Source of the DNA: a virus
Lineage: Duplodnaviria; Heunggongvirae; Uroviricota; Caudoviricetes
Length of the DNA: 64,000 bases
Virus record (IMG/VR): IMGVR_UViG_3300045988_149737
Direction: 5' to 3' (one strand)
Below, in pieces: positions 3,701-64,000 of this stretch (the first letter of the stretch is position 1; every line of letters begins with the position of its first letter). The notes beneath the pieces are model-generated. The model was given only the letters and a program-made list of their open reading frames with translations, was not told the origin of the DNA and made no database searches. Both the position numbers and the translations under genes were made by a program.

Positions 3701-3763
3701 GTAAGCCTTGTTTAAACACATAAGATAACAACTTGTTTAAACACATCAAAAAAGGAAAAACAC

Positions 3764-10858: not shown

Positions 10859-11452
10859 ATGATTGCAGCCGAAAAAATCAAACAGCGAAAGCGCGACAAC
10901 TCTCTTCGTGACCTCTGGAGAACACCTGACTGGCTGTTTTCTGCCATTCAACGTTATCTTGGGGTGACATTTGATGTTGACGTTGCCTGCAACAAGGACA
11001 ATGCAAAGCTGCCTAATTTCATAGGCGTTGAGCGTGATGCTTTGAAATCTGAATGGGGACAGCCAGGTACAATTGCCTTCCTCAATCCCCCCTACTCCAA
11101 AATCTCCCCCTGGATTGATGCGGCTATACGTGAGCAGGCTCGCGGAGTTACAACAGTGATGCTAATTCCTCAATCCCTAGATACAAAGTGGTATGAGCGT
11201 GCAACAGAGTGTGCGAATGAGACGATTATTCTGTCTGGTGGCCGCGTAGCGTTTGTCGAGCCTGACGTCAATCTGGGTCAGGTAGAAGTAAACATCAACC
11301 CAGGTGGCAGTATGCTCGTTGTTTTTCGAGGATTCTGTCAGGACGCTGGGCACTCTATAAGCAAGATCCCTTTGGACGTCATGAAAAGTCTGGGAGGGTA
11401 TGATCCTGCGAATGTGATCAGGAAAAAAAGACCATCAAAGAAGGCTGCTTAG
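10859..11452 (+). CDS. DNA N6-adenine methyltransferase (phage Dam-type)
   Basis: TPDWLF near N-terminus and FLNPPYSK catalytic motif. Confidence 0.85.
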   Translation: MIAAEKIKQRKRDNSLRDLWRTPDWLFSAIQRYLGVTFDVDVACNKDNAKLPNFIGVERDALKSEWGQPGTIAFLNPPYSKISPWIDAAIREQARGVTTVMLIPQSLDTKWYERATECANETIILSGGRVAFVEPDVNLGQVEVNINPGGSMLVVFRGFCQDAGHSISKIPLDVMKSLGGYDPANVIRKKRPSKKAA

Positions 11453-11473
11453 TTTGTTCTGGCGTCTGTAATT

Positions 11474-11532
11474 AGCCTGCTTCTGTATATATAAATAACT
11501 ACATATTAATTATTAATATACGGAAGCAGGCT
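11474..11532. repeat. long inverted-repeat hairpin element, copy A
   Basis: agcctgcttctgtatata ... tatacggaagcaggct arms around an AT-rich loop; a second near-identical copy at 41167-41225. Confidence 0.6.
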
Positions 11533-11637
11533 GTTTTGTATCAGAGACTCCAGACCTGAACATCACTACAGAATCCACTAGAACCCCTTCCCAGACGCTT
11601 TAAAATCGATTTTATGAATCACTTTAAGGAAACTAAC

Positions 11638-12453: not shown

Positions 12454-13047
12454 ATGACGACGAAGACACCAGCCCGATCGCAAGCAAAAACTCGCAAAAA
12501 AGCCAAAAACAAAAATTCTCCCCGCACCAATTACACAACGCCTGTCGTAGAGTTCAATCCCCAGCTTAAAACCGTGAAAATCTTCAGTGATGGATCTTGC
12601 CTTAAAAATCCGGGTGGCCCGGGCGGTTACGGTATCGTTCTTCAGTATCGTGGAGAGGAACGCGAGTTCTCAGATGGTTTTCATAGCACCACCAATAACC
12701 GCATGGAGATGATGGGGGCACTTATCGGGCTGGAGCGTTTGAAATATCCATGCAACGTTATTTTACACTCTGATAGCCAGTATCTGAAAAACGGCATGAC
12801 ACTGTGGATGAAATGGTGGAAACGCAATGGATGGATGACTTCTGACAAAAAACCGGTAAAGAATGTTGATCTGTGGAAGCGTCTGGATGAGGCTGCAAGT
12901 CGACATAATGTTCGCTGGAAGTGGGTTAAAGGTCACGCCGGGCATCGTGAAAATGAAATATGTGATCGACTCGCGAAGATCGCAGCTTTTTCCGCAGCAG
13001 ATATGCCTCACAAGAAAGATATTGGTTTTGTTTACAACAAACGGTAG
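12454..13047 (+). CDS. rnhA: ribonuclease HI with basic N-terminal extension
   Basis: [51 protein letters not shown] collinear with E. coli RnhA; ATG at 12454 with RBS caggag (ORF track start 12367 lacks RBS). Confidence 0.9.
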
Positions 13048-13062
13048 GTAAGTGTTTACCTA
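13045..13062. promoter_or_regulatory. palindrome TAGGTAA-gtgt-TTACCTA (family 2 site)
   Basis: Overlaps the rnhA stop codon. Confidence 0.4.
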
Positions 13063-13885: not shown

Positions 13886-13940
13886 CGGTTGTTAGTGCAT
13901 ATGCATTGACCGTCTTTTCGTAAGCAATTCATGTAACTAG

Positions 13941-13955
13941 AAAACAACTTGTTTT
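13941..13955. promoter_or_regulatory. operator-like palindrome AAAACAA-c-TTGTTTT (family 1 site)
   Basis: Perfect inverted repeat 24 nt upstream of the TerB-like gene start; same motif precedes about 12 genes. Confidence 0.5.
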
Positions 13956-13978
13956 AACAAATAACAAAAGGAAAGCAC

Positions 13979-14592: not shown

Positions 14593-14701
14593 TTGACCGA
14601 AATAGAGAGTTTGCACCTTTACGTTTAGCTTGCTCCCCTTTTATGCCACATCACAATAAAGCCAATAAGAAAACAACTTGTTTAAGCATTAGGAAAAACA
14701 C

Positions 14702-15271
14702 ATGTGCAAGAAATGCAAAGCGATAGCTGATGAACAAAACGCCTTATTCGAAGAAATGGATGCTAATGAACTGGTCAAAATGTTAGCCATTCTTCGAGGA
14801 ATAGAAGACGTTTCCATATTTGAGAGAGTGGTTACAGCACTTAATTTTGAGTCCACCTTTGAAGAGCCAACTCAGGTTGTAGCTTTAGCACATCATTTCG
14901 GTGTTCATTATCTTGCTGAAAAAGAGCGCGCTGATAAGTTGCAGGCGACTTTGGATATGGTGAGCGAGACTCAACGAACTGATGACACTAACAAGAGTGA
15001 GGCGATTATTGCCAGCAAAGATCGTGAAATTGCTGGGCTTAAATCCTCTCTAACGATGTTGATGTCTGCGTTCAATCTTATGTCTTCTCAGGCGGGTTAT
15101 AAAATGCCATCACTAAACAGCGATGATCCGATGGCCGTTCGTCAGCTTTTGGGAGCAATGGCCGACCAACTCGACGACACAAAGAGTCGGCTTGAAGACA
15201 TGATGCGTGAGTTAAGCCATCGACATAACCTCGCAACACAGCCACACAAAGCCTTTCAAAGCTCTAATTGA
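14702..15271 (+). CDS. hypothetical protein
   Basis: 189 aa; preceded by family-1 operator and RBS aggaaaaa. Confidence 0.5.
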   Translation: MCKKCKAIADEQNALFEEMDANELVKMLAILRGIEDVSIFERVVTALNFESTFEEPTQVVALAHHFGVHYLAEKERADKLQATLDMVSETQRTDDTNKSEAIIASKDREIAGLKSSLTMLMSAFNLMSSQAGYKMPSLNSDDPMAVRQLLGAMADQLDDTKSRLEDMMRELSHRHNLATQPHKAFQSSN

Positions 15272-18014: not shown

Positions 18015-18015
18015 T

Positions 18016-18032
18016 AGGTAAATACTTACCTA
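18016..18032. promoter_or_regulatory. palindrome TAGGTAA-tac-TTACCTA (family 2 site)
   Basis: 2 nt after the methyltransferase stop. Confidence 0.4.
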
Positions 18033-19160: not shown

Positions 19161-19279
19161 ACGCTACAAATCCTTCTGCGTGAATAAATAAAGGCCATAA
19201 GTTGTGGCCTTAAATAAATTGTTTTCTGCCTTTTCTTATTTGTGAAAATAACCACAACTAGAAAACAACGGAGTTAAGA

Positions 19280-26948: not shown

Positions 26949-27034
26949 TATAGACACAATCCCTCCTGATTTACACAATCCCTAAAACAATTTGTTTTCT
27001 ACCTTTTGTTGATTGAGATAATAAGCCACATAAG

Positions 27035-27048
27035 AAAACAAATTGTTT
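27035..27048. promoter_or_regulatory. operator-like palindrome AAACAA-at-TGTTT (family 1) in a promoter region
   Basis: Lies after TTTTCT(-35)-17 bp-ATAATA(-10); a second copy aaaacaatttgtttt at 26985-26999 overlaps the -35. Confidence 0.45.
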
Positions 27049-27053
27049 AGGAG

Positions 27054-27302
27054 ATGAAGATGTTTGGAACAGCAAAAGAAATCATCGAGAAACTGAAAAA
27101 CTATCCAGAAGACGAACCCTTACTCATGGTTATGTGGCACAAAGAAGATATTGCTGAAGTAAGGACAGATCTCACTGATGAACAATGCGTACAGGTGATG
27201 CAAAAAATCAGACAATGCCATAACGCTGATGTCGGCGTTAATTGGGAGGTTATATCCACTACGGCGAATGAGTTGTTTCCAAACGGGGAGAGGGGATGTT
27301 AA
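27054..27302 (+). CDS. hypothetical small protein
   Basis: 82 aa; RBS aggag; alternative start 27060. Confidence 0.45.
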   Translation: MKMFGTAKEIIEKLKNYPEDEPLLMVMWHKEDIAEVRTDLTDEQCVQVMQKIRQCHNADVGVNWEVISTTANELFPNGERGC

Positions 27303-28815: not shown

Positions 28816-29188
28816 TATAGCGTGAGGGAGAGTTGCGGCTACCCACCTGTAATGTGCGGGAAGAAGAGAGGCGCTAACGTGCAGGCGAACTTACTTACCG
28901 CTGGATTCCCTCTGAATGCCCAACTACAGCGTAATTGTGCCAGACAGCCAACGGGTCACAATCGATTTCAGTAGGTTTTCGGGGAGAGGATTATTCTGCC
29001 CACCAGCCACTTTCGGCCACCAAATCAGAATAATGTAAAAAGTGTACTCGGTACTGAACCTGAAAACTCACTGCCAAAACAACATTCACCGGAATAAAAT
29101 CCTTTTTCGCCTTTGCGTTATTGCGATAATAACGCCAACAAGAAAACAACATATTTAGACGTTGTAGAAACGAAGTGAGGATGAAGAG

Positions 29189-29407: not shown

Positions 29408-29546
29408 GAGTGAGGCCACCAGCACGGTGGCTTTTGTCGCTATTAACCTCCGGGGCAGCGCAGCACCGTAACGATATACTTTGTGGCCGTTTTCTTACTG
29501 GTATTGTTTACGCAATTCAGAAAACATGTTGTTTAAGGATTGCTTT

Positions 29547-29876: not shown

Positions 29877-30030
29877 TCCCAACCAAAGCCAGCATTGCTG
29901 GCTTAACTTAATCTGTAGCCGCAGGGAAGAACCTGCATATCGCTCATGCGCCTGATCAATATGCTTTGTAGCCGTTTTCTTACTGGTATTATTTACGCCA
30001 TTGAGAAAACAAGTTGTTTACGGAGTTGTG

Positions 30031-30864: not shown

Positions 30865-30981
30865 TCCTCTTTAAATGGCGCGTAAACCGCGCCATTTTCT
30901 TATGCCCGATAATAATTTGTTTTCTGCCTTATCTGATTTGTGAAAATGATTTCACTGAAGCAACTTAATAAGGAAACCATC

Positions 30982-31356
30982 ATGGGACTTGATATCTACA
31001 TCGAGACGCAGCCAAAAAACGATCTGAATAATGAGGCATCCAGAAAGCGGGTTGCTCACTTCCGTAAGTTCAATGCGCTCGTTGGGTGGATGGAGCGCAA
31101 CGTAGGTGAAGTCGAAAATTGTGAGCTTTTAGAATTAACGATGAATGACATTTGTTTTCTGAAGGCTCATTTGATGCACATAAACGAAAGCAATTGCGAA
31201 GAGTACTTGCCTACTCGGGAAGGTTTTTTCTTCGGCAGTCAGGAGTACGATGAAGGTTACTGGCATGATGTGGGGGAGTTGAAAGAGCTTGTGGAAGATC
31301 TGATTAAGAACCACGACTTTCACAATAACAGACTGACCTTCTGCGCCTGGTGGTAA
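30982..31356 (+). CDS. hypothetical protein
   Basis: 124 aa from ATG at 30982 (RBS aaggaaa). Confidence 0.45.
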   Translation: MGLDIYIETQPKNDLNNEASRKRVAHFRKFNALVGWMERNVGEVENCELLELTMNDICFLKAHLMHINESNCEEYLPTREGFFFGSQEYDEGYWHDVGELKELVEDLIKNHDFHNNRLTFCAWW

Positions 31357-31357
31357 A

Positions 31358-31501
31358 TATGGGCGATTTCAAGAAACGCCTGAAGGAAAGAGCCGAGATG
31401 GCCAGAAAGCAAAACGCCTCTTCTGTCATCAGATACGCAAGGCAGTTTAGTCGCAACAACAAATCAGTTGAGGAAAAGATCCTTAGCGTAATCGAGCGAT
31501 A
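31358..31501 (+). CDS. hypothetical small basic protein (47 aa)
   Basis: ATG 1 nt after upstream stop; below ORF-track cut-off; followed by a terminator. Confidence 0.3.
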
Positions 31502-31507
31502 ATTATT

Positions 31508-31531
31508 AAGACCACCAGCATTGGTGGTCTT
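31508..31531 (+). terminator. hairpin terminator (shared sequence family)
   Basis: aagaccacca-gca-ttggtggtctt; near-identical hairpins at 29414-29437 and 31979-32002. Confidence 0.5.
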
Positions 31532-31691
31532 AAATGACTTTTAATAACCGAAGGTTAATTTTAAACCTGGCTATCAACTTCCAGAACCTTTCTTGTGTAT
31601 TCAGCCTGAATTAACTTCTTTTCTGCCTTATCTACACTGCGATAATTACACCAACAAGAAAACAACATGTTTACGCAGTGAGGATATGCAC

Positions 31692-31973
31692 ATGACTGAT
31701 TTCACCATTACCCCAAAAGCACAAAATGTATTCCTTGAATCATGGCTGGACTTGCCGGAAACAGAACAGCAAGAAATGGATCATGTGGAATATGACGAGC
31801 AGGTAAGCACGCGATTCTTCCACTTTGAGGGCTGCGTTTACGATATTGCCGACTTCATGAGAGATGACCGCTTCCCTGGATGGCACGCAAGCTATCCACT
31901 TAACGCCTTCGCCATGCTGATGATCCGTGTGGGTGATTCAGGGGATACCATCGACATCGGTCTGCTCCACTAA
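31692..31973 (+). CDS. hypothetical small acidic protein
   Basis: 93 aa from ATG at 31692 (RBS tgaggat 7 nt upstream). Confidence 0.45.
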   Translation: MTDFTITPKAQNVFLESWLDLPETEQQEMDHVEYDEQVSTRFFHFEGCVYDIADFMRDDRFPGWHASYPLNAFAMLMIRVGDSGDTIDIGLLH

Positions 31974-31978
31974 AGACT

Positions 31979-32002
31979 AAGGCCACCAGCATTGGTGGCC
32001 TT
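31979..32002 (+). terminator. hairpin terminator (shared sequence family)
   Basis: aaggccacca-gca-ttggtggcctt. Confidence 0.5.
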
Positions 32003-32177
32003 AAATGACCATCTTGTTTCCCGCAGGCTAAAAACACCAACCTCTTACCTCCAGGCAACCGACAAACCCACCTGTTCCCGTCCGGCTACCGCAACTTTCC
32101 ACTTTGACGCCTTATTCGTACAACGATAATTAACACCAACAAGAAAACAATTTGTTATTTACGATAAGGAATTAATC

Positions 32178-32800: not shown

Positions 32801-33274
32801 TATAGAAAAAACATCGGGAAGCTGGTGGAATCCAACCAGCGGTTGTCGGACAGGTGAGCGGGGAAAATTATGATGACTTTCGTCGCCTGAGACATCCAGA
32901 TTTCTTTCGTAGCGTAATCACATATGTGATTAAGTGGTGTGATTATGTGAAAAATCACGCGCACATAATACGCGAGCGGATACGGAACAAAACAAAATGC
33001 CGATCCGCGCCGACAATTAAACGCGGATCATAAAGCAAGAATAAAAGCCAATGATTAACCATACACCATAGCGCAATATAACGCGTTTTAAGCGCGTTAA
33101 TGTGTTGAGTAATGGGTATGTACTGGTAAGGATATAAAAGCGCGTCTGTGGCGTTATTTTGGCGCTTATTTTATGTTGTTGGAGTGAGTCAAAGACAATA
33201 AAAAAGCGCCATCATTGGCGCGTTATGGTGGAAGTATTAGAAACGAAAAAAGCGCCCATAGTGGGCGCTAGATT

Positions 33275-33505
33275 TTATTTATGTAAACTGATTTCAAATC
33301 CCATTTCTACAAACGCTTTTAACATTAAAAATATATCAGCGTCATTCACGTCTGCTTTTTTTCGCTCCTGGTCGCTCAATAAGTCAATTTTGCGCGTCGT
33401 TTCATCGATAAACTCGACTGCGCGCCCAGCGTAACCAGCGATCCCAGCGATGCGATTAACAAAATATTCATTGCGCACGTTAACGCCAGAGATAAGAATA
33501 AACAT
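33275..33505 (-). CDS. hypothetical small protein
   Basis: 76 aa; flanked on both sides by minus-strand hairpin terminators (gcgccca-tag-tgggcgc at ~33250 and ~33525). Confidence 0.45.
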   Translation of the reverse strand: MFILISGVNVRNEYFVNRIAGIAGYAGRAVEFIDETTRKIDLLSDQERKKADVNDADIFLMLKAFVEMGFEISLHK

Positions 33506-33552
33506 GATTAAGCTCCTTAAAAGCGCCCATAGTGGGCGCCAGATTCCATTAA

Positions 33553-34203
33553 TTACGCTTTGAAAGCATCAGCCAGATAGTTATAGAAATCATTTTTAAT
33601 AAAGCGATATTGCTGCGTACCAGCTTTTGCGCTTCCCATTCCTTTGACTTTCTCAACAAGTCCAAGACGTTCGCAAAGATTGATAAGCTGGTTGGCTTGA
33701 GTGTATCCTGCGTCTAATTTTATTTCGTTGGCTTTTTTCGCTTCATTCATTAAATCGAAAACAGCGCCATTTGTGAACGTCTCGATCTCGTCGTTAATCA
33801 TATCGATTAATGCGAATACACGAGATCCGGACATATCAGCGACGGAATAAACACACTTTCCAGCTTTAATGGATTTAACCAGATAAACCAGTTTTTCCAG
33901 AGAGTAACTATTAGCCATTGCATCACGGAAAAATACTTCTGGCGCTTGTTTGCTTGCTTTGATCGCATAGTAGAAAACAGAGCACAATTTTTCGTCTTCT
34001 ACAGCGTTTACAACGTTGTTGATGAAGTAAGCAAGTTTAGTGGTCGCAGCTTGCATATTTGCTTTATCTGCTTTGGTGTGCGTACCATTTTTATAATGTT
34101 CGTTATATGTTTGAGTTGCCAGATCTGCTTTTTCGCGCAGTTCATCGGATACAATGGAAGCAGCTTCAACGATGGATTTTTTAGAAATGATAATGTTAGC
34201 CAT
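33553..34203 (-). CDS. hypothetical protein
   Basis: 216 aa; RBS aaggaaa 7 nt upstream on minus strand; lower GC than surrounding phage genes. Confidence 0.55.
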   Translation of the reverse strand: MANIIISKKSIVEAASIVSDELREKADLATQTYNEHYKNGTHTKADKANMQAATTKLAYFINNVVNAVEDEKLCSVFYYAIKASKQAPEVFFRDAMANSYSLEKLVYLVKSIKAGKCVYSVADMSGSRVFALIDMINDEIETFTNGAVFDLMNEAKKANEIKLDAGYTQANQLINLCERLGLVEKVKGMGSAKAGTQQYRFIKNDFYNYLADAFKA

Positions 34204-37722: not shown

Positions 37723-37741
37723 AGTGGATTGTAGCAATAAA

Positions 37742-38422
37742 ATGGATGTAAAAATCACGATTTTGCAGGTTGATGTTGCCAACCTTCGCCCGAATACCTG
37801 GAACACCAATTCGGTTGGTGCGCAGAATTTTGAAAAACTGAAAGGTTCTATCGAAAAATTGGGCTTTTTTAAGCCAATTTTGGCTCGTGAACTTGAAGAT
37901 GGATTTTTTGAAATCCTCGGCGGCGAACATCGCTGGCGTGCCGCTATTGAGCAAGGAATTTCAACGGTTCCGGTGCTTTCTGTGGGCAAAATTAGCGATG
38001 TCGTAGCTAAACAGATGTCACTGGTGGACAACGAGCGATACGGTGAAGACGACCAAATCGCATTGCAACGCTTCATTGAAGAAATTCAGTCAGAACTTGA
38101 CTATCAACTGTCTGAAATCGCCCCGTATGACGACGAAATCTCGATGGTTTTAGCAAAAGAGGCTGCAATCGACCTTGAAGCACTGGAGGCGTTGTCTCGT
38201 GGTAGTGATGAGCCTGTCGATACCGACAAACGAGAGAAAACCGAACGTGTGGGTGCGGAACATCAGACCATGCGCTTCAAAGTAACTTTCGATGCGTCAG
38301 ATCGTGTTGCAGAAACCATAAAAAACATCATCAAAGAGCAGGCTATTAACACCGGTAATGAAATGGAGAACGCTGGTGAGGCTCTGGTGTGGCTGGTCGA
38401 CTACTACAAGGAGCGTATGTAA
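37742..38422 (+). CDS. ParB/Srx-like N-terminal domain protein 1
   Basis: FEILGGEHRWRAAIEQGISTVPV matches the ParB N-domain arginine-rich motif; ATG at 37742 (ORF track GTG at 37724). Confidence 0.7.
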   Translation: MDVKITILQVDVANLRPNTWNTNSVGAQNFEKLKGSIEKLGFFKPILARELEDGFFEILGGEHRWRAAIEQGISTVPVLSVGKISDVVAKQMSLVDNERYGEDDQIALQRFIEEIQSELDYQLSEIAPYDDEISMVLAKEAAIDLEALEALSRGSDEPVDTDKREKTERVGAEHQTMRFKVTFDASDRVAETIKNIIKEQAINTGNEMENAGEALVWLVDYYKERM

Positions 38423-39090
38423 TGACCAAAAAGTTTGAAATCGTATATCGCGACCCGGCAGATCTTATTCCCTATGAGATGAATGCCAAAAAGCATGATG
38501 AACAGCAGATCAGAGATCTGGCCGCAGCCATTAAAAAGCGCGGATTTGACCAGCCAATTACGGTCGATAAGAACGACGTAATTATTACTGGCCACGGCCG
38601 CCGTGAGGCTGCAATTTTTGCTGGACTTGAGCGTGTACCGGTTATTGTTCGTGATGATCTGAGTGATGACGAGGTACGTGCAAAGCGCCTTGAAGATAAC
38701 CGACTTGCCAGCATTGATTACGATGCAATTAAGCTACAGAAAGAGCTTGAGTCGCTTGTTCTGGACGATATCGAGGTTTTCGGCTTTGAAGAGCGTGAGT
38801 TGAATGTTCTTGTTGGCAGTATGACAGAAGAAATGGACACCGACTCGCTAGTTATCGATCTTGGCGAAGAAACTAAACGACAGAAGGATGAACACACCGA
38901 GATCAGTCGCGAAGTTGCAGCGGAAGAAGTACGTGTTGTCGACGTATTGGGCTTTAAAACGCTTCCTGCTGGCTCTGCCATTGTTGTTGGTGATTTGCTT
39001 GCCCACATGGAAGAAATGACGGGAGAAAGCGGGGTAGACGCATTTGTGGCATATGCGGAGAAGATCTCTTCCGGGGAGATGGCTGCATGA
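38422..39090 (+). CDS. ParB/Srx-like N-terminal domain protein 2
   Basis: IITGHGRREAAIFAGLERVPVIV; taATG overlap with upstream gene, RBS aaggag. Confidence 0.7.
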   Translation: MTKKFEIVYRDPADLIPYEMNAKKHDEQQIRDLAAAIKKRGFDQPITVDKNDVIITGHGRREAAIFAGLERVPVIVRDDLSDDEVRAKRLEDNRLASIDYDAIKLQKELESLVLDDIEVFGFEERELNVLVGSMTEEMDTDSLVIDLGEETKRQKDEHTEISREVAAEEVRVVDVLGFKTLPAGSAIVVGDLLAHMEEMTGESGVDAFVAYAEKISSGEMAA

Positions 39091-39725
39091 GCAAATACAT
39101 CATCAACGTATCGTTTCAGACTCGCGTAAATAAAACCACGCGCACGCTGGAAATCGCCGAGTCGTTCGGGCTTGGTCTGGACGAAAAAGAGTGGGCGCTT
39201 TACGACAATCTGGAGCTGGAAGTAAAGCAGGGCGATGTGGTGTACATCACCGGCCAATCCGGTTCAGGTAAATCCGTTGTGTTGCGCGAGCTGCAACGCC
39301 AGATGAAGGATGAAGGGCTTTCTGTAGCTTCTATTGATGACTTTACCTTCGATAATGAGGTTAACGTCATTGATCAACTGGGCAAAACTACCAGTGATGC
39401 GCTTGGGTTGTTATCTATGGCCGGATTGAATGACGCCTATCTCTTTGTGCGTAAGCCATCCGAGATGTCTGACGGCCAGAAATACCGTCTCAAGATCGCC
39501 AAGCTGATCGAGTCCGGCGCGAAAGTCTGGGCTGCCGACGAATTTGGCGCTGTTCTCGACCGTGTAACCGCCCAGGTTGTGGCGTCGAACCTCCAGCGTG
39601 CCGCCCGTAAGGTTGGTGCGACGGTAATGGTGGCGACGACCCACGAAGACCTGAAGAACGCGCTGCGCCCGGATATGCAGATCACCAAGCACTACAAAGA
39701 ACGCGTGAAGGTGGAATATGCCTGA
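39087..39725 (+). CDS. soluble ABC-type ATPase
   Basis: Walker A GQSGSGKS, signature-like SDGQKYR, Walker B/D-loop VWAADEFGAVLD, H-loop TTHED; no permease gene adjacent. Confidence 0.7.
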   Translation: MSKYIINVSFQTRVNKTTRTLEIAESFGLGLDEKEWALYDNLELEVKQGDVVYITGQSGSGKSVVLRELQRQMKDEGLSVASIDDFTFDNEVNVIDQLGKTTSDALGLLSMAGLNDAYLFVRKPSEMSDGQKYRLKIAKLIESGAKVWAADEFGAVLDRVTAQVVASNLQRAARKVGATVMVATTHEDLKNALRPDMQITKHYKERVKVEYA

Positions 39726-39972
39726 TTTGAAGATCGTAGAGCTGAAGCCATCGAAAGAGGCTGACAACAACAACGTTGAAGTCATCCGCCTGCTGGAAGA
39801 AGCACTCCAGTACGCCAGAGAAGGCAAAAGCCAGAGCCTGGCACTGCTGATGATCAACAACGACGGCAGTGTGCTGGATTGCTGGCATAACGGTGGGCGT
39901 CCATACGTCATGGTTGGGGCGATGGAATCGCTTCGCCTGGACTTCATCAATGCCAATATCGAGCGTAGGTGA
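39718..39972 (+). CDS. hypothetical small protein
   Basis: 84 aa; start overlaps upstream stop. Confidence 0.4.
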   Translation: MPDLKIVELKPSKEADNNNVEVIRLLEEALQYAREGKSQSLALLMINNDGSVLDCWHNGGRPYVMVGAMESLRLDFINANIERR

Positions 39973-40868
39973 TCGACATGACAGGCATCATCATCAAACG
40001 CTACCGCCCGGAAGAGTTCCCGCGTCATCTGGACTTTCTGGAGCGTATGACCGTTACCAAAGGCACGGTTGAAGACTGGCACGCGCTGAAGTCGCTGCAC
40101 TACAAGACGGATGGTAAGCCGTTCGCGCCAACGTATTATCGCTGCGAACTGGACGACCGGCTGGTGGGCGTAGTGGTTATGGCTTACCCGAAACTGCTGC
40201 TGGCGCCTCGCCATCGCATGTTTCCTAAGCTGAAGCCAACCACCAATACCACCGTGGCCAACCAGTATTGGGGCCGGTACGTGAACAACAACTTTGCCGT
40301 GATCAGCCGTTCCGTTGTTGACACTCAGTACCGCGGTGTCGGCGTCTCCTATCGAATGATTAACCTGGTTAGCAGGATGCACGACCGGCCAATCATCGAG
40401 ATCCAGTCGTCGATGAGCAAATACAACCCGTTCGCCATGAAAGCAGGGTTCCAGTTCATCCGTCCGGAGCGTCCGAAGAGCTATGAGAGTGCGTTGCGCG
40501 TCTTCCAGCGTCATTTCCGTTCTGACCCTGGCGACAACGAAGCGATCGTCAAAGAGCTGTTCGCCATGAGTGAGTCTCGCCGTCGTCGTGCGCTGCGTGA
40601 TCTGGTCGCTGACTACCACAAGAACAGTTCCCTGGCCAAAGCCGGGCGTAATCGTGGCACGACGATTCAGGACATTGCCGACAGCCTGGTGGACGAGGCC
40701 AGCATTGTGAAGCTGCTCAAGGACATTCACAACCTGAGCTTTACGTCTCCGTTGTATGGTGTGTACCGAAACCCTGACTTTGGTCGTCGACTGCCTGACA
40801 CGCTGCCACTGCTGGCATTCGACAAACAACCTTTGGATAAACCGTTAGAAATTGCTTTACCGGCATAA
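39969..40868 (+). CDS. hypothetical protein, possible GNAT-like fold
   Basis: VVDTQYRGVGVSYRMINLV resembles the GNAT acetyl-CoA-binding motif; weak. GTG start, alternative ATG at 39978. Confidence 0.4.
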   Translation: MIDMTGIIIKRYRPEEFPRHLDFLERMTVTKGTVEDWHALKSLHYKTDGKPFAPTYYRCELDDRLVGVVVMAYPKLLLAPRHRMFPKLKPTTNTTVANQYWGRYVNNNFAVISRSVVDTQYRGVGVSYRMINLVSRMHDRPIIEIQSSMSKYNPFAMKAGFQFIRPERPKSYESALRVFQRHFRSDPGDNEAIVKELFAMSESRRRRALRDLVADYHKNSSLAKAGRNRGTTIQDIADSLVDEASIVKLLKDIHNLSFTSPLYGVYRNPDFGRRLPDTLPLLAFDKQPLDKPLEIALPA

Positions 40869-40877
40869 GGATTTGCC

Positions 40878-41144
40878 ATGACGTTAACCGATAAACAAAA
40901 GGACATCATCAAAACGCTCAATCTAGGTTATGAGCGAGGTCATCTACTTGATCTGGACGAATTGCTTGAAGTTTTGCCGTACAAGACAACAAAGCAAAGT
41001 ATCCAGTTCTCAATTCGCGCTCTGATAAAAAAGGGGCTGGTGGAGAAAGGGCATACGCGCCAACGCATTGACAATCGCTATCACCGCCGAACTCTTGGGT
41101 TAACCACTTTAGGTCGAGCCAAAGCGAAGTTACTGGTGATGTAA
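40878..41144 (+). CDS. hypothetical small protein, possible winged-helix DNA-binding
   Basis: 88 aa; RBS aagga. Confidence 0.4.
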   Translation: MTLTDKQKDIIKTLNLGYERGHLLDLDELLEVLPYKTTKQSIQFSIRALIKKGLVEKGHTRQRIDNRYHRRTLGLTTLGRAKAKLLVM

Positions 41145-41166
41145 TCGGTCTGGGAGCTTATTTAAA

Positions 41167-41225
41167 GACCTGCTTCTGTATATATAAATAATAAGTAACT
41201 TATTAAATATATACGGAAGCAGGCT
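41167..41225. repeat. long inverted-repeat hairpin element, copy B
   Basis: cctgcttctgtatata ... tatatacggaagcagg; near-identical arms to copy A at 11474-11532. Confidence 0.6.
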
Positions 41226-41340
41226 TAATAAGACATGCCCAGACCTAATTAAACACCCCAGAAAACAAGTTGGTTAGCAGATGCAGTAAACAAGTTGTTT
41301 TAGAGCGCATGGACGCGCTCTGTGTGTTTTAGAGGGATCT

Positions 41341-41973
41341 ATGACGGTCGAAAAAGACGAGGTAAAAACTCGCCTGACACCAGCGGAGTGGGCCGAAGCT
41401 GAAGCCAAATGGACGTCAGGCGAATATACACTCTCAAAGCTGGAGGAAGAGTACGGCATTCGTCGTGAAACACTCTCCAGACATTTCAAAAAGCGAGGAT
41501 TAGAGAAAGGCGCGGACTCTGTTGGGAAGATGGTTCGTGAGTCTCTTAAATCTGACGCAGAGCTTCGCGCTAAAGCCCGTGCGGAAAAGATAGAAGAACG
41601 TCGTACACGTTATGACGGCTGGGCGTATGCGTTGGGGCAGATGGTGATGGTCGAAGTCACTACGGCCAAACGTGAGGGTAAGCCTTTAGGGGCGATTGAG
41701 GATTCTCTCAAGAGCTTACAGAGAGCAAGTAATACCCTTGCAAAATGCTTTGAAGTTTCGTCCAAAGCATTGGGCATGGATCATGCGGAAAATGACGAGG
41801 AAGAAATTCCGAACCTGGTATTTGGTGAGCTTACGCCTTCCCAGGTGGCGAAATTACGTCAGGAAGACGACGAGCCTGAAATCATCGATGACGAATTGCT
41901 TGAGACGTTGGAAGAAGAAGCTCTAAGCGAATTTGATGCGACAGATGATGGAAGTGAAGGGGAGGACGAATAA
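41341..41973 (+). CDS. putative terminase small subunit
   Basis: 210 aa immediately upstream of terL; N-terminal helix-turn-helix-like segment; acidic C-terminus; two family-1 operators and a hairpin upstream. Confidence 0.55.
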   Translation: MTVEKDEVKTRLTPAEWAEAEAKWTSGEYTLSKLEEEYGIRRETLSRHFKKRGLEKGADSVGKMVRESLKSDAELRAKARAEKIEERRTRYDGWAYALGQMVMVEVTTAKREGKPLGAIEDSLKSLQRASNTLAKCFEVSSKALGMDHAENDEEEIPNLVFGELTPSQVAKLRQEDDEPEIIDDELLETLEEEALSEFDATDDGSEGEDE

Positions 41974-43229
41974 TGGCAATCCCGTCCTCGCTCAGTCTTG
42001 TGCAACTGCATTCTGGACAGATGAAAGTCTTCCAGTCTCCGCATCGATTTAAAGTTGTTTGTGCTGGTCGACGCTGGGGAAAATCCCGGTTGTCGATCTC
42101 CACTATTATTCGTGCGGCGGCAAAGAAAAAAAAGCAAAGGGTCTGGTATGTCGCTCCTACTTACCAGATGGCTCGCCAGATTTTGTGGGACGATCTACAG
42201 GAAGTTCTGCCTCGTAAGTGGGTTAGGAAAAAGAACGACACCACGATGACAATCGTGTTGAAGAACGGTTCGGAGATCGCTCTCAAAGGTGCTGATAAGC
42301 CTGACACTCTGCGCGGCGTAGCGTTGCATTTTGTAGTGCTTGATGAATTTCAGGATATGAAGGCTGACACCTGGTACAAGGTGTTACGACCTACTCTTTC
42401 ATCGACACGCGGCGGTGCACTGATCATTGGTACGCCAAAAGGCTTCTCGGAATTTCACAAACTGTGGACTATAGGCCAGAACGTAGAGCTGCAAAGAAAG
42501 GGACAGTGGAAGAGCTGGCAGTTTGTAACTGCCGATTCTCCGTTTGTGCCTACGGCGGAAATTGAAGCTGCTAAGAACGATATGGATCCTAAATCGTTCG
42601 CTCAGGAGTACCTGGCGAGCTTTGAGAACATGTCCGGGCGCGTTTACTACCCGTTCGATCGTAACGTGCATGTAAAACCGCTTCAGTTCAACCCTCGGTT
42701 GCCTATATGGGTAGGGCAGGACTTCAACATTGACCCGATGTCTTCCGTAATTTTGCAACCTCAGCCAAATGGTGAGCTATGGGCAATTGATGAATTGGTG
42801 CTCTTTTCCTCTAACACGGCAGAAGTTTGTGATGAGCTTGAGAGACGCTTCTGGCGCTGGAAATCACAGATAACGGTATTTCCAGATCCGGCAGGTGCTT
42901 ATCGCCAACATGCTCGCGGGGAGTCTGACGTCGACATATTCAAAGAGAAGGGATTCTTACGTGTCGATTATTCGAAAAAGCACCCGCCAATTGCGGATCG
43001 TGTTAATGCTGTTAACCGAATGCTGATGACTGCATCTGGAGATATCCGGCTGTATATCGATCCGAAGTGCAAGCATTTGATTGATTCACTGGAAAAAGTC
43101 ATCTACAAGCCTGGAACACGAGATATGGATAAGACAGGTGGCATTGAGCATAGTGCAGACGCATTGGGCTATCCAGTACATCGTAGGTATCCAGTCAAAA
43201 ACCGTGTTATTCTTGGTGGTTCTCGATAG
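41973..43229 (+). CDS. terminase large subunit
   Basis: 418 aa; Walker A-like VVCAGRRWGKS, Walker B VVLDEF; followed by the portal gene. Confidence 0.85.
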   Translation: MAIPSSLSLVQLHSGQMKVFQSPHRFKVVCAGRRWGKSRLSISTIIRAAAKKKKQRVWYVAPTYQMARQILWDDLQEVLPRKWVRKKNDTTMTIVLKNGSEIALKGADKPDTLRGVALHFVVLDEFQDMKADTWYKVLRPTLSSTRGGALIIGTPKGFSEFHKLWTIGQNVELQRKGQWKSWQFVTADSPFVPTAEIEAAKNDMDPKSFAQEYLASFENMSGRVYYPFDRNVHVKPLQFNPRLPIWVGQDFNIDPMSSVILQPQPNGELWAIDELVLFSSNTAEVCDELERRFWRWKSQITVFPDPAGAYRQHARGESDVDIFKEKGFLRVDYSKKHPPIADRVNAVNRMLMTASGDIRLYIDPKCKHLIDSLEKVIYKPGTRDMDKTGGIEHSADALGYPVHRRYPVKNRVILGGSR

Positions 43230-43255
43230 GTAAGTAATTATCTAAGGTTATTCAA

Positions 43256-46640: not shown

Positions 46641-46674
46641 TCAGTGAAGTAGATAAGTAATTATCTATGTTAAA

Positions 46675-63143: not shown

Positions 63144-64000
63144 ATGTGGTACAGGGAAGGTACAATAAATCTCACTAAAGGAAATAAAGCTGTAGTGGGA
63201 ACAGGCACAGCCTGGGGAGTGACGGCGAACGGCGTCCTTCCAGGTATGATATTGATTGGCCCCGATAATAAGTTATATGAAATAAAATCAATCGAGAGTG
63301 ACACTTCGTTAACTCTTGTTGAAGCCTACGGTGGCAGCACCCAAACAAATGTTCCGTGCAGAATAATTACGACCTATGAAGGTGATTTGACCCAATTTAG
63401 TGCTCGTTTTACTGCGCTTATGTCTCGCATGTCAGCCGATTCAAAAATGATGCGTAGTTGGCTGACTGCTGTGGATGAAATAACAATTGAGCGTGAAGAT
63501 GGCACGGAATTAACCGTAAAATCCCTTACGCAGATCGTTAATGAGCACAATGAGAACCTAGAATGGTATAAAGAAAATACTCCCATAATTAACACCGCTG
63601 CACAAAAAGCTAAAGAGGCGGCAGCGAGCGCAACAGCGGCCAAAAAATCAGAAACTAACTCAAAAGCGAGTGAGACAGCTTCAAAGACCAGCGAAACTAA
63701 TGCGAAAAATAGCGAGGTAGCTGCAAAATCGAGTCAGAGTGCTGCCGCCAACTCCGCTACCGCAGCAAAAAACAGTCAGGATGCAGCAGCCGAAAGCGAG
63801 AGTGCTGCAGCTGGTTCTGCGACTTCAGCAGCTGGATCAGCAACTGCTGCGGCTAACAGCCAGAAAGCCGCGAAGACGAGCGAAACTAACGCAAAGTCCA
63901 GCCAGACGGCAGCGAAGACCAGCGAAACGAATGCTAAAGCCAGCGAAACTGCGGCGAAAAGCAGTCAGGATGCAGCGGCTCAAAGCGAGAGTGCCGCAGC
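63144..64000 (+). CDS. side tail fibre protein, 5' portion (runs off window end)
   Basis: ATG at 63144 with RBS aaagga; translated by hand: MWYREGTINLTKGNKAVVGTGTAWG..., then tandem Ser/Ala/Thr-rich SETNAK/SQDAAA repeats; no stop before position 64000. Confidence 0.7.
   Translation, partial: MWYREGTINLTKGNKAVVGTGTAWGVTANGVLPGMILIGPDNKLYEIKSIESDTSLTLVEAYGGSTQTNVPCRIITTYEGDLTQFSARFTALMSRMSADSKMMRSWLTAVDEITIEREDGTELTVKSLTQIVNEHNENLEWYKENTPIINTAAQKAKEAAASATAAKKSETNSKASETASKTSETNAKNSEVAAKSSQSAAANSATAAKNSQDAAAESESAAAGSATSAAGSATAAANSQKAAKTSETNAKSSQTAAKTSETNAKASETAAKSSQDAAAQSESAA

Follow-up and report, generated by a model that had tools for sequence, protein, structure and literature searches.

A three-copy palindrome family at gene-block boundaries of SSU5-type phage-plasmids and lytic relatives

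The window analysed here is a 64,000-nt stretch of a Caudoviricetes virus (IMG/VR record IMGVR_UViG_3300045988_149737). It contains two long palindromes, termed copy A (11474-11532, reading AGCCTGCTTCTGTATATATAAATAA ... ATATACGGAAGCAGGCT) and copy B (41167-41225, reading GACCTGCTTCTGTATATATAAATAA ... ATATACGGAAGCAGGCT). They are members of a three-copy family located at the block boundaries of SSU5-type phage-plasmids and lytic relatives. No description of such a family was found in the searchable literature. The anatomy, copy number, gene-order position, conservation and T-tract asymmetry of the palindromes are reported below, together with a gene-level RNA drop at the third copy, C. Tentatively, and with a probability somewhat short of even, they are interpreted as transcript-boundary hairpins, acting as terminator or insulator at A and C and as a processing or pause hairpin at B.

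Anatomy, copy number and distribution

The window represents an SSU5-like phage-plasmid, with 97-98% identity to Escherichia phage Cyrano (the pLF82 plasmid of strain LF82), to CMS-2020a and to PhiR41_1, and with ~79% identity to Salmonella phage SSU5 and to Klebsiella relatives. Nearly all genes in the Cyrano annotation are on one strand (+). SSU5-like phage-plasmids are common in clinical Enterobacteriaceae and also carry resistance genes.

Copies A and B have a 23-nt left arm and a 17-nt right arm in common. Their 57-nt units are 82% identical, and the differences are confined to the central AT-rich part. The initial annotation of the window had described nearly exact arms with differing loops, one copy following a Dam methylase gene and the other preceding terS; all of this was confirmed (methylase family PF05869; terS as annotated in Cyrano). 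Its claim that the duplication is not due to chance was likewise borne out, as the 23-mer CCTGCTTCTGTATATATAAATAA occurred exactly twice in the 64-kb window, even at 3 mismatches, with a shuffle expectation of 0.00. Extra half-sites above chance were not present in the window. For the folding-energy check that had been proposed, both cores were folded as + strand RNA, and no shuffle folded as well as either of them (Table 1). The - strand of both cores folded about as well as the + strand.

Each copy follows a composite plan consisting of an outer inverted repeat, variable spacers, inner arms and an AT-rich centre, with the outer repeat being weaker at A and C. At B, the stems comprise 17-19 bp (inner), a 7-bp apical helix and an 8-bp outer helix with internal loops in between. 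The full B element (41140-41260) folded at -50.6 kcal/mol (z = -10.1), and its outer repeat is kept across B sites. The fold of positions 11440-11580 paired the outer repeat segments of copy A (-44.5 kcal/mol, z = -5.1). The apex measures 21-25 nt in the window copies; copy C of Cyrano has a 25-bp stem. A comparison of the whole window with Rfam at gathering thresholds gave no match, and a permissive Rfam E-value yielded merely generic microRNA-precursor-like hairpins far below threshold.

A search beyond the window, also proposed initially, revealed the third copy. A left-arm scan of IMG/VR returned 110 loci in three flank classes. Copy C is found at position 31,159 of Cyrano, in the gap from CYRAN_30 to CYRAN_31; the helicase, primase and ligase genes come after it. 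In the same coordinates B lies at the record junction 5' of terS and A at 78,084 after dam. The three copies have one orientation and spacings of ~31, 47 and 30 kb, which places C outside the window. The two hairpins noticed initially were real; what had been missed was a third copy, the presence of outer repeats and how widely the family is spread phylogenetically. All copies are situated between co-directional + strand genes. The block from B to C holds virion genes, lysis genes and cargo, the block from C to A genes for replication, recombination and nucleotide metabolism, and the block from A to B ParB-like genes together with small accessory ones.

In PLSDB, ~800 plasmids contain the core, from Klebsiella, Escherichia, Enterobacter, Yersinia (pMT1), Salmonella, Citrobacter and Cronobacter. 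Among 5,426 complete Escherichia coli genomes it was found in 258, at 402 places and with 1-3 copies per genome, always on ~105-115 kb plasmids and never on a chromosome. None of the IMG/VR contig ends coincided with the elements.

A selfish element resembling miniature inverted-repeat transposable elements or repetitive extragenic palindromes, inserted three times without any phage function, is a very improbable explanation. Terminal inverted repeats, intergenic placement and near-identical copies would fit it, as would the left edge of C being a mosaic breakpoint between close relatives. However, the exclusive plasmid location in E. coli rules out a free mobile palindrome. Moreover, Escherichia, Salmonella, Klebsiella, Xenorhabdus and the Pseudomonas phage nickie have the element at three orthologous positions, and it is more conserved than its flanks. 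Regarding the left flank of C (L015 1-1343 versus L115 30331-31158), homology of E. coli phage-plasmids that are otherwise 97-99% identical begins exactly at the left edge of C, and the slot between the par operon and C holds at least 3 different genes among close relatives. C therefore marks a cargo-exchange boundary. The element positions are natural candidates for module exchange points and engineering insertion sites.

For conservation analysis, the E. coli type was compared with the SSU5/Klebsiella types. Identity was 86-100% in the arms, 81-92% in the centre, 50-76% in the flanking 100 nt and 71-86% in neighbouring coding DNA. Centres are site-specific at orthologous sites: in both lineages the A-type and B-type loops differ, so that the copies are not constantly converted to one another. 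Whole-unit gene conversion nevertheless does occur, as seen from the 55-nt cores, which are identical between B and C in the E. coli lineage, and from ~75 nt that two copies have in common in one Klebsiella-associated lineage (L182/L189), including a left part that no longer pairs. Most stem pairs do not vary across 19 B sites; compensatory changes were seen at two positions, from AU to GC (8 sequences) and from CG to UA via UG. Conservation of the arm sequence may reflect an additional trans-acting reader, gene conversion between copies, or both. A recombination breakpoint at A was not found in a mosaic genome, where Klebsiella-type flanks are present on both sides.

Distant loci were reached via terS and phrog_2500 homologues. 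Elements of Xenorhabdus, Morganella and Moellerella carry the inner arms GCCKTGCTCCCATA / TATGGGAGCAMGGC and the outer repeat CCGCAGTGT / ACACTGCGG. The Xenorhabdus-type variant occupies all three positions in one X. szentirmaii contig, whose A site forms a hairpin of -57.1 kcal/mol (z = -7.8). In Morganella the right arm is common to B and C; at C its pairing partner lies downstream and has a T-rich tail after it. The arms of B and C differ in the Raoultella/K. michiganensis lineage, and concerted change is accordingly not universal.

The lytic Pseudomonas phage nickie has the same gene order and a TerL with 55% identity. Equivalents are located after a phrog_900 homologue and before terS, after phoH and before phrog_2500 and DnaB, and at ~98.1 kb. 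All three are among the six most AT-rich 60-nt windows of this 57%-GC genome, and the C equivalent folded at -39.5 kcal/mol (z = -6.4). Composite palindromes with different arms were located 5' of terS in the Rhizobium phages RHEph10 (-49.9 kcal/mol, z = -8.1) and B1VFA (-61 kcal/mol, z = -8.0). No clear palindrome was seen 5' of terS in Stenotrophomonas phage BUCTxx99. Constant throughout the group are the dyad, the AT-rich apex, and a pyrimidine-rich left and purine-rich right arm on the coding strand. The element provides a noncoding marker for a wider phage group, from Enterobacteria to Pseudomonas and Rhizobium phages.

Palindromes and transcript boundaries

In the lineage to which the window belongs, the conserved CCTGC of the arm starts 24-25 nt past the stop codon of the preceding gene at each of the three copies (24 at A and 25 at B). 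At 22 unique A sites, the 8 nt past the stem contain a mean of 5.3 T on the + strand versus 2.5 on the - strand (GTTTTGTA). At C the values are 4.7/8 and 3.6/8, respectively (T-tract TCTTTTAAAA). T-runs are also carried by the B sites of the distant lineages L162, L163 and L133.

For expression analysis, a published RNA sequencing table of strain LF82 was used (PMC9928086). Genes of the parA operon (CYRAN_28-30) are listed at log2(FPKM+5) (FPKM, fragments per kilobase per million mapped reads) of ~10, and CYRAN_31 is at floor level (2.3-4.2). At the gene level, expression falls at least 100-fold across C, between CYRAN_30 and CYRAN_31, which are 193 nt apart (PMC9928086). C is the sole strong hairpin in this interval, and no other terminator-like site is present there. 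From CYRAN_123 to CYRAN_1, across B and its backup terminator, the fall is 3-5-fold (PMC9928086). At A both neighbouring genes are at background, hence this site was uninformative (PMC9928086).

In a transcript-boundary mechanism, each block would be transcribed from the + strand, and the RNA would fold into a 17-25 bp stem just past the last stop codon of the block. Transcripts would end or be cut within this hairpin. The copies with U-tracts, A and C, would act as very strong, unusually long intrinsic terminators that shield the next block from read-through. In the lysogen, C would allow expression of the parA operon upstream without activation of the lytic replication genes. B would serve as a pause, processing or 3'-end-stabilising hairpin (RNase III-type substrate), backed by a canonical terminator 75 nt downstream. 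The RNA drop at C fits insulation of lysogen-active maintenance operons from co-directional lytic blocks. A transcript-boundary role is also favoured by the stability of the cores, by the compensatory changes and strong distant folds that preserve the dyad as the sequence changes, and by the higher conservation of the element relative to its flanks. The element marks where such plasmid-maintenance operons abut lytic blocks that need to be silent, and it offers a testable handle on how ~100 kb of nearly all co-directional genes are split into lysogenic and lytic programmes.

At the position of the backup hairpin (41301-41332), the stem is GAGCGC/GCGCTC in the window, GGCGC/GCGCC in L122 and GGCGTC/GATGCC in L162, the last of which has no T-run. 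This change of stem sequence with pairing kept points to a hairpin, either regulatory or a terminator, that has been conserved for the late operon.

A strong bidirectional terminator or a processing site was among the functions considered in the initial annotation. The distance to the stop codon, the + strand T-tracts at A and C and the fall at C lend partial support to termination or processing. The term bidirectional was not upheld, given the absence of a T-tract on the minus strand at A and the location of nearly all genes on the + strand. The palindromes resemble rho-independent terminators in having a GC-clamped hairpin ~24 nt past the stop codon, a coding-strand T-tract at A and C and a steep RNA fall across C. 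The stem-loop is stable and contains GC; a compact stem with a short loop of 3-8 nt was not found. Terminators have stems of 5-10 bp and loops of 3-8 nt, whereas the palindromes have 17-25 bp stems and an AT-rich, partly paired apex of 20-100 nt. Further differences are the outer inverted repeat, the arm conservation across genera and the missing T-tract at B and in the equivalents of lytic relatives.

Several observations weigh against transcript-boundary hairpins. B sites of Escherichia, Salmonella and Klebsiella contain 2.9/8 T, equally on both strands, and are thus without a T-tract; B therefore does not qualify as a canonical intrinsic terminator. A T-tract after the palindrome is likewise missing from all equivalents in nickie, RHEph10 and B1VFA. 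As both B and the equivalents of lytic relatives lack this feature, canonical intrinsic termination cannot be the family-wide function. A terminator pattern scanner did not call A, B or C, and apices of ~50-100 nt in Xenorhabdus and Moellerella are atypical for terminators. The C site of X. szentirmaii keeps the right arm only and folds no better than shuffles (z = -0.25); the same applies to the L163 B site (z = +1.0) and the nickie A site (z = +0.8), each with one degenerate arm. When G-T and A-C mismatches were used to determine the functional strand, both kinds were seen on either strand, with no + strand preference. The arm sequence is kept beyond pairing needs, and the same arm change occurs at several copies of one genome in X. 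szentirmaii, Morganella and lineage L182/L189. Finally, the RNA sequencing support is at the gene level, concerns copy C alone in the lysogenic state and stems from a plasmid 97-98% identical to the window. The missing U-tract at B and in lytic relatives, the long variable apices, the arm conservation and the parallel arm changes together leave room for a sequence-specific reader, which may be a protein binding RNA or DNA, or a function at the DNA level.

Judged by their sequence and fold, the hairpins might alternatively be candidate RNase III sites at which long polycistronic transcripts are cut into block-sized mRNAs with protective 3' hairpins, termination being secondary. We regard this as distinctly unlikely for the family as a whole, while RNase III processing would fit B particularly well. 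B has no U-tract and is the most stable hairpin. The duplex (17-25 bp plus a 7-bp apical and an 8-bp outer helix) would be long enough for RNase III and provides the ~20 bp of double-stranded RNA expected of a substrate. The position is intercistronic, and a long hairpin is kept in relatives without T-tracts. RNase III sites of phage T7 resemble one another, and T7 early mRNA is processed in this way; copies of the palindrome within one genome resemble each other as well. Like the T7/T3 sites R0.3 and R1.1, the palindromes are long, irregular intercistronic hairpins with internal loops, present as paralogous copies between gene groups of one strand. Unlike these, they are only three in number, have an AT-rich apex of variable length and have lost pairing in some lineages. 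This loss of the hairpin counts against RNase III sites, as does the missing + strand wobble bias. The fall of at least 100-fold at C also exceeds what processing alone usually gives.

Possible roles as DNA sites, in packaging and in partition

The main rival possibility is that the palindromes are DNA sites read by a conserved phage DNA-binding protein, with two inverted half-sites, and outer half-sites in addition, flanking an easily melted AT-rich centre. Such sites could be dispersed lytic replication origins, unwinding elements, or initiator or regulator sites at the head of each block. We assign this a minor but appreciable probability. It is favoured by the conservation across genera of the arm sequence itself, beyond pairing, and by lineage-specific arm variants common to several copies per genome. 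The outer as well as the inner repeats differ between the E. coli type (GGTCTGGGAG / CCTGCTTCC) and the Xenorhabdus type (CCGCAGTGT / GCCTTGCTCCC), and dyad symmetry is kept in both types. The spacing of the arms ranges from ~20 to ~100 nt, and the right arm persists where the left one is lost. C is directly 5' of the conserved phrog_2500, DnaB helicase and primase genes in all lineages. Also in line with a DNA-level site are the AT-richness of the nickie sites (three of the six top 60-nt windows), the absence of T-tracts from the equivalents in lytic relatives, and the confinement of TATAAATA in the window to the two elements. The latter sequence was also considered as a T4-type late promoter. 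This was rejected, as a motif confined to these elements is not a general late-promoter motif.

On the other hand, no binding protein was identified for a DNA-level site, and a fold search on the protein neighbouring C gave a weak result. GC/AT skew showed no origin signal. Neither B nor C received a sigma-70-like promoter call, and CYRAN_31 is silent in the lysogen. Concerted arm change is not universal (Raoultella/K. michiganensis B versus C). The + strand T-tract asymmetry and the fixed stop-codon distance are not predicted by a purely DNA-level role. Analogues would be oriL and oriR of phage SPP1, two distant sites bound by the initiator, and the few dyad activator sites found at late promoters of P2 or Mu. 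The palindromes are similar to origins of the SPP1 oriL/oriR type in being present in more than one dispersed copy in one orientation, with inverted repeats and an AT-rich centre, and in that copy C adjoins helicase and primase genes; the T-tract asymmetry and the fixed stop-codon distance would be unexpected for origins. If true, a DNA-level role would represent a new class of cis-acting sites in a large, little-studied phage group.

In a more specific proposal, which is considered unlikely, a conserved phage protein would act on the palindromes, possibly in the form of extruded cruciforms or hairpins, to start lytic DNA metabolism on the circular plasmid prophage. The three copies may serve as dispersed unwinding or priming origins, or as programmed breaks feeding T4-like recombination-dependent replication. 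The element encodes machinery of the latter kind (UvsX/RecA, UvsY, a gp32-like single-stranded DNA-binding protein, UvsW, SbcCD and RuvC). Breakage at the palindromes, if it takes place, would explain both whole-unit gene conversion and an assembly or record end inside B.

The initial annotation had also mentioned a packaging-related site. In this case B would be a cos or pac site cut by terminase in the AT-rich centre, and A and C would be related pseudo-sites; this is decidedly improbable. B lies 116 nt upstream of terS, the classic cos position, and the virion-derived GenBank record of SSU5 starts and ends inside the B centre (...CTTATTA / AATATATACGG), with a chance of ~6e-4 (59 nt/103,299 bp). 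B is also the most symmetric copy and has no T-tract, and composite palindromes occur 5' of terS in nickie, RHEph10 and B1VFA. With a dyad around an AT-rich centre just 5' of terS and record ends inside, B thus resembles sites such as lambda cosN-cosB. By contrast, three copies are present per genome, of which B alone adjoins terS, and in the E. coli lineage B and C do not differ in their cores, unlike a single packaging site. The start of the Cyrano record is at the homologous point, offset by 1 nt, but this record is re-annotated pLF82 without mapped virion ends. As it was also compared with SSU5 by its authors, it was not counted as independent cos evidence. Assemblies of 454 or short reads can be broken by a long hairpin alone. 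In B1VFA (TerL 54% identical), fixed 3.6-kb direct terminal repeats are apparently ~54 kb away from terS. The B1VFA paper reports raised coverage in the terminal regions of the record, and no such palindrome is present at the record ends.

The opening of both the SSU5 (NC_018843.1; L003 1-20, L004 1460-1500) and the Cyrano record (OV696614.1; L001 1-20, L002 2340-2380) in the B centre, 1 nt apart, was noted separately. It is either a real DNA end or a hairpin-induced assembly break passed on by the choice of start point. A Photobacterium contig ending in a B-like site was rejected as evidence, since its hairpin architecture differs and palindromes can break assemblies. The start of the vB_KpnS_p4727 record near A is simply the ATG of the next open reading frame. 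TerL typing was not predictive of packaging (weak Terminase_6N/3 matches). The nearest TerL relatives, 54-58% identical, belong to large siphophages, one of them with direct terminal repeats, and TerL of Jersey-like and Kagunavirus-like phages is ~25% identical. No link between SSU5 and cohesive ends or PhageTerm was found in the searchable literature.

A protelomerase target (telRL) was excluded, as no protelomerase is annotated in Cyrano and the palindromes are imperfect and present in three copies. The relative pJN2-26 is recorded as a circular molecule.

By analogy with phage N15, the copies could be dispersed centromere sites for the partition protein of the element, which is extremely unlikely. 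N15 reportedly carries four dispersed SopB-binding inverted repeats, two of which flank late-gene control elements. The phage-plasmid lifestyle with several dispersed palindromes would agree with such a role. As with IR1-IR4 of N15, there is a handful of copies, one of which lies 5' of the late operon, with a terminator between it and the first packaging gene. In addition, two ParB_N genes are upstream of B, and parA is ~1 kb upstream of C. However, homologous elements are found in lytic nickie at all three positions and 5' of terS in RHEph10, and this occurrence outside a plasmid lifestyle weakens an N15-type centromere. The N15 sites are short, bound by SopB and tied to SopAB, whereas the present palindromes are ~60-100 bp long and unrelated in sequence; no similarity to known parS or sopC sites was detected. 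The par operon adjoining C, with a small ParA and a 119-aa partner whose C-terminus we take to be ribbon-helix-helix-like, also counts against a centromere. Type Ib partition systems normally use arrays of short repeats. Furthermore, the gene between the par operon and C varies among close relatives.

The gene CYRAN_29 of Cyrano (L115 29975-30334, outside the window) is annotated as 'RelE/ParE putative toxin'. It follows and overlaps the small ParA gene, and its product ends ...KSRTMSLEDEYFELLEMM, with a match to phrog_5111 only (function unknown) and no Pfam match. The product probably serves a type Ib partition system as the partner that binds the centromere.

Gene context and other repeats

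Coordinates of the palindromes and adjacent features in the window are summarised in Table 1.

Table 1. Copies A and B, neighbouring genes and associated hairpins in the window
Feature	Position	Strand	Description
Dam-family methylase gene	10859-11452	+	Pfam PF05869, E = 2.5e-38; last gene ahead of copy A
Copy A, extended dyad	11456-11557	+	Outer imperfect inverted repeat GTTCTGGCGTCTG (11456-11468) / CAGAGACTCCAGACC (11543-11557) around inner hairpin
Copy A, inner hairpin	11474-11532	+	Left arm AGCCTGCTTCTGTATATAT, AT-rich centre, right arm ATATACGGAAGCAGGCT; RNA fold -26.9 kcal/mol, z = -6.5
T-tract of copy A	11533-11541	+	GTTTTGTAT, immediately 3' of copy A
88-aa gene	40878-41144	+	phrog_900, 'DNA-binding' in Cyrano annotation; last gene ahead of copy B
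Copy B, full composite palindrome	41147-41245	+	Outer repeat GGTCTGGG (41147-41154) / CCCAGACC (41238-41245), partly complementary spacers, inner arms, AT-rich centre
Copy B, inner hairpin	41167-41225	+	Near-complete 59-nt palindrome; RNA fold -28.8 kcal/mol, z = -8.4; without T-tract, tail CTTAATAAGA
Canonical terminator-like hairpin	41301-41332	+	Hairpin TAGAGCGCATGGACGCGCTCTG (41301-41322) plus TGTGTTTTAG; 75 nt past copy B, just 5' of terS ribosome-binding site
terS	41341-41973	+	phrog_867 'DNA binding domain', terminase small subunit in Cyrano; first gene past copy B
terL	41973-43229	+	Next after terS

A six-gene cluster is located directly 5' of B (37724-41144). It encodes two ParB_N-domain proteins, an ABC-type ATPase, a small protein, a 299-aa phrog_886 protein and the 88-aa phrog_900 protein; a homologue of the last precedes the B equivalent in nickie. 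The gene order is kept in Klebsiella and Moellerella elements and in part in lytic nickie, always just 5' of terS. Possible roles of this cluster are packaging, partition and DNA modification.

Palindromic boxes of the AGAAAACAAnTTGTTT type form a large family in the window (3707-3758, 13939-13974, 14668-14703, 19202-19276, 26969-27055, 29083-29157, 29463-29539, 29948-30024, 30894-30947, 31599-31673, 32129-32162 and 41258-41300). They often flank a -10-like hexamer, GATAAT or GAAAAT (TTGTTTTCTGCC...TGCGATAAT...AGAAAACAA), and two of them are located between copy B and terS. By their sequence, these boxes look like operator-flanked early promoters under one phage regulator.

An 18-nt palindrome, TAGGTAAGTnnTTAyCTA, is present in five copies (1284-1301, 13045-13062, 18015-18032, 43227-43244 and 46650-46667). 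At least 2 of these overlap stop codons at gene junctions (RNase H gene end, 13047; terL end, 43229). Duplicated short GC-rich hairpins flanked by A/T-runs were found at 31500-31538 / 31971-32009 and at 33248-33282 / 33519-33553 (AAGGCCACCAGCATTGGTGGCCTT; AAAAGCGCCCATAGTGGGCGCT). Unlike the long AT-centred palindromes, these resemble ordinary bidirectional terminators that recur in neighbouring intergenic regions. In the tail-fibre region, 53-nt tandem-like repeats (ACTGCGGCGAAAAGCAGTCAGGATGCAGC...) extend from 63696 to 64000 and continue past the window end; they probably represent a repetitive fibre domain.

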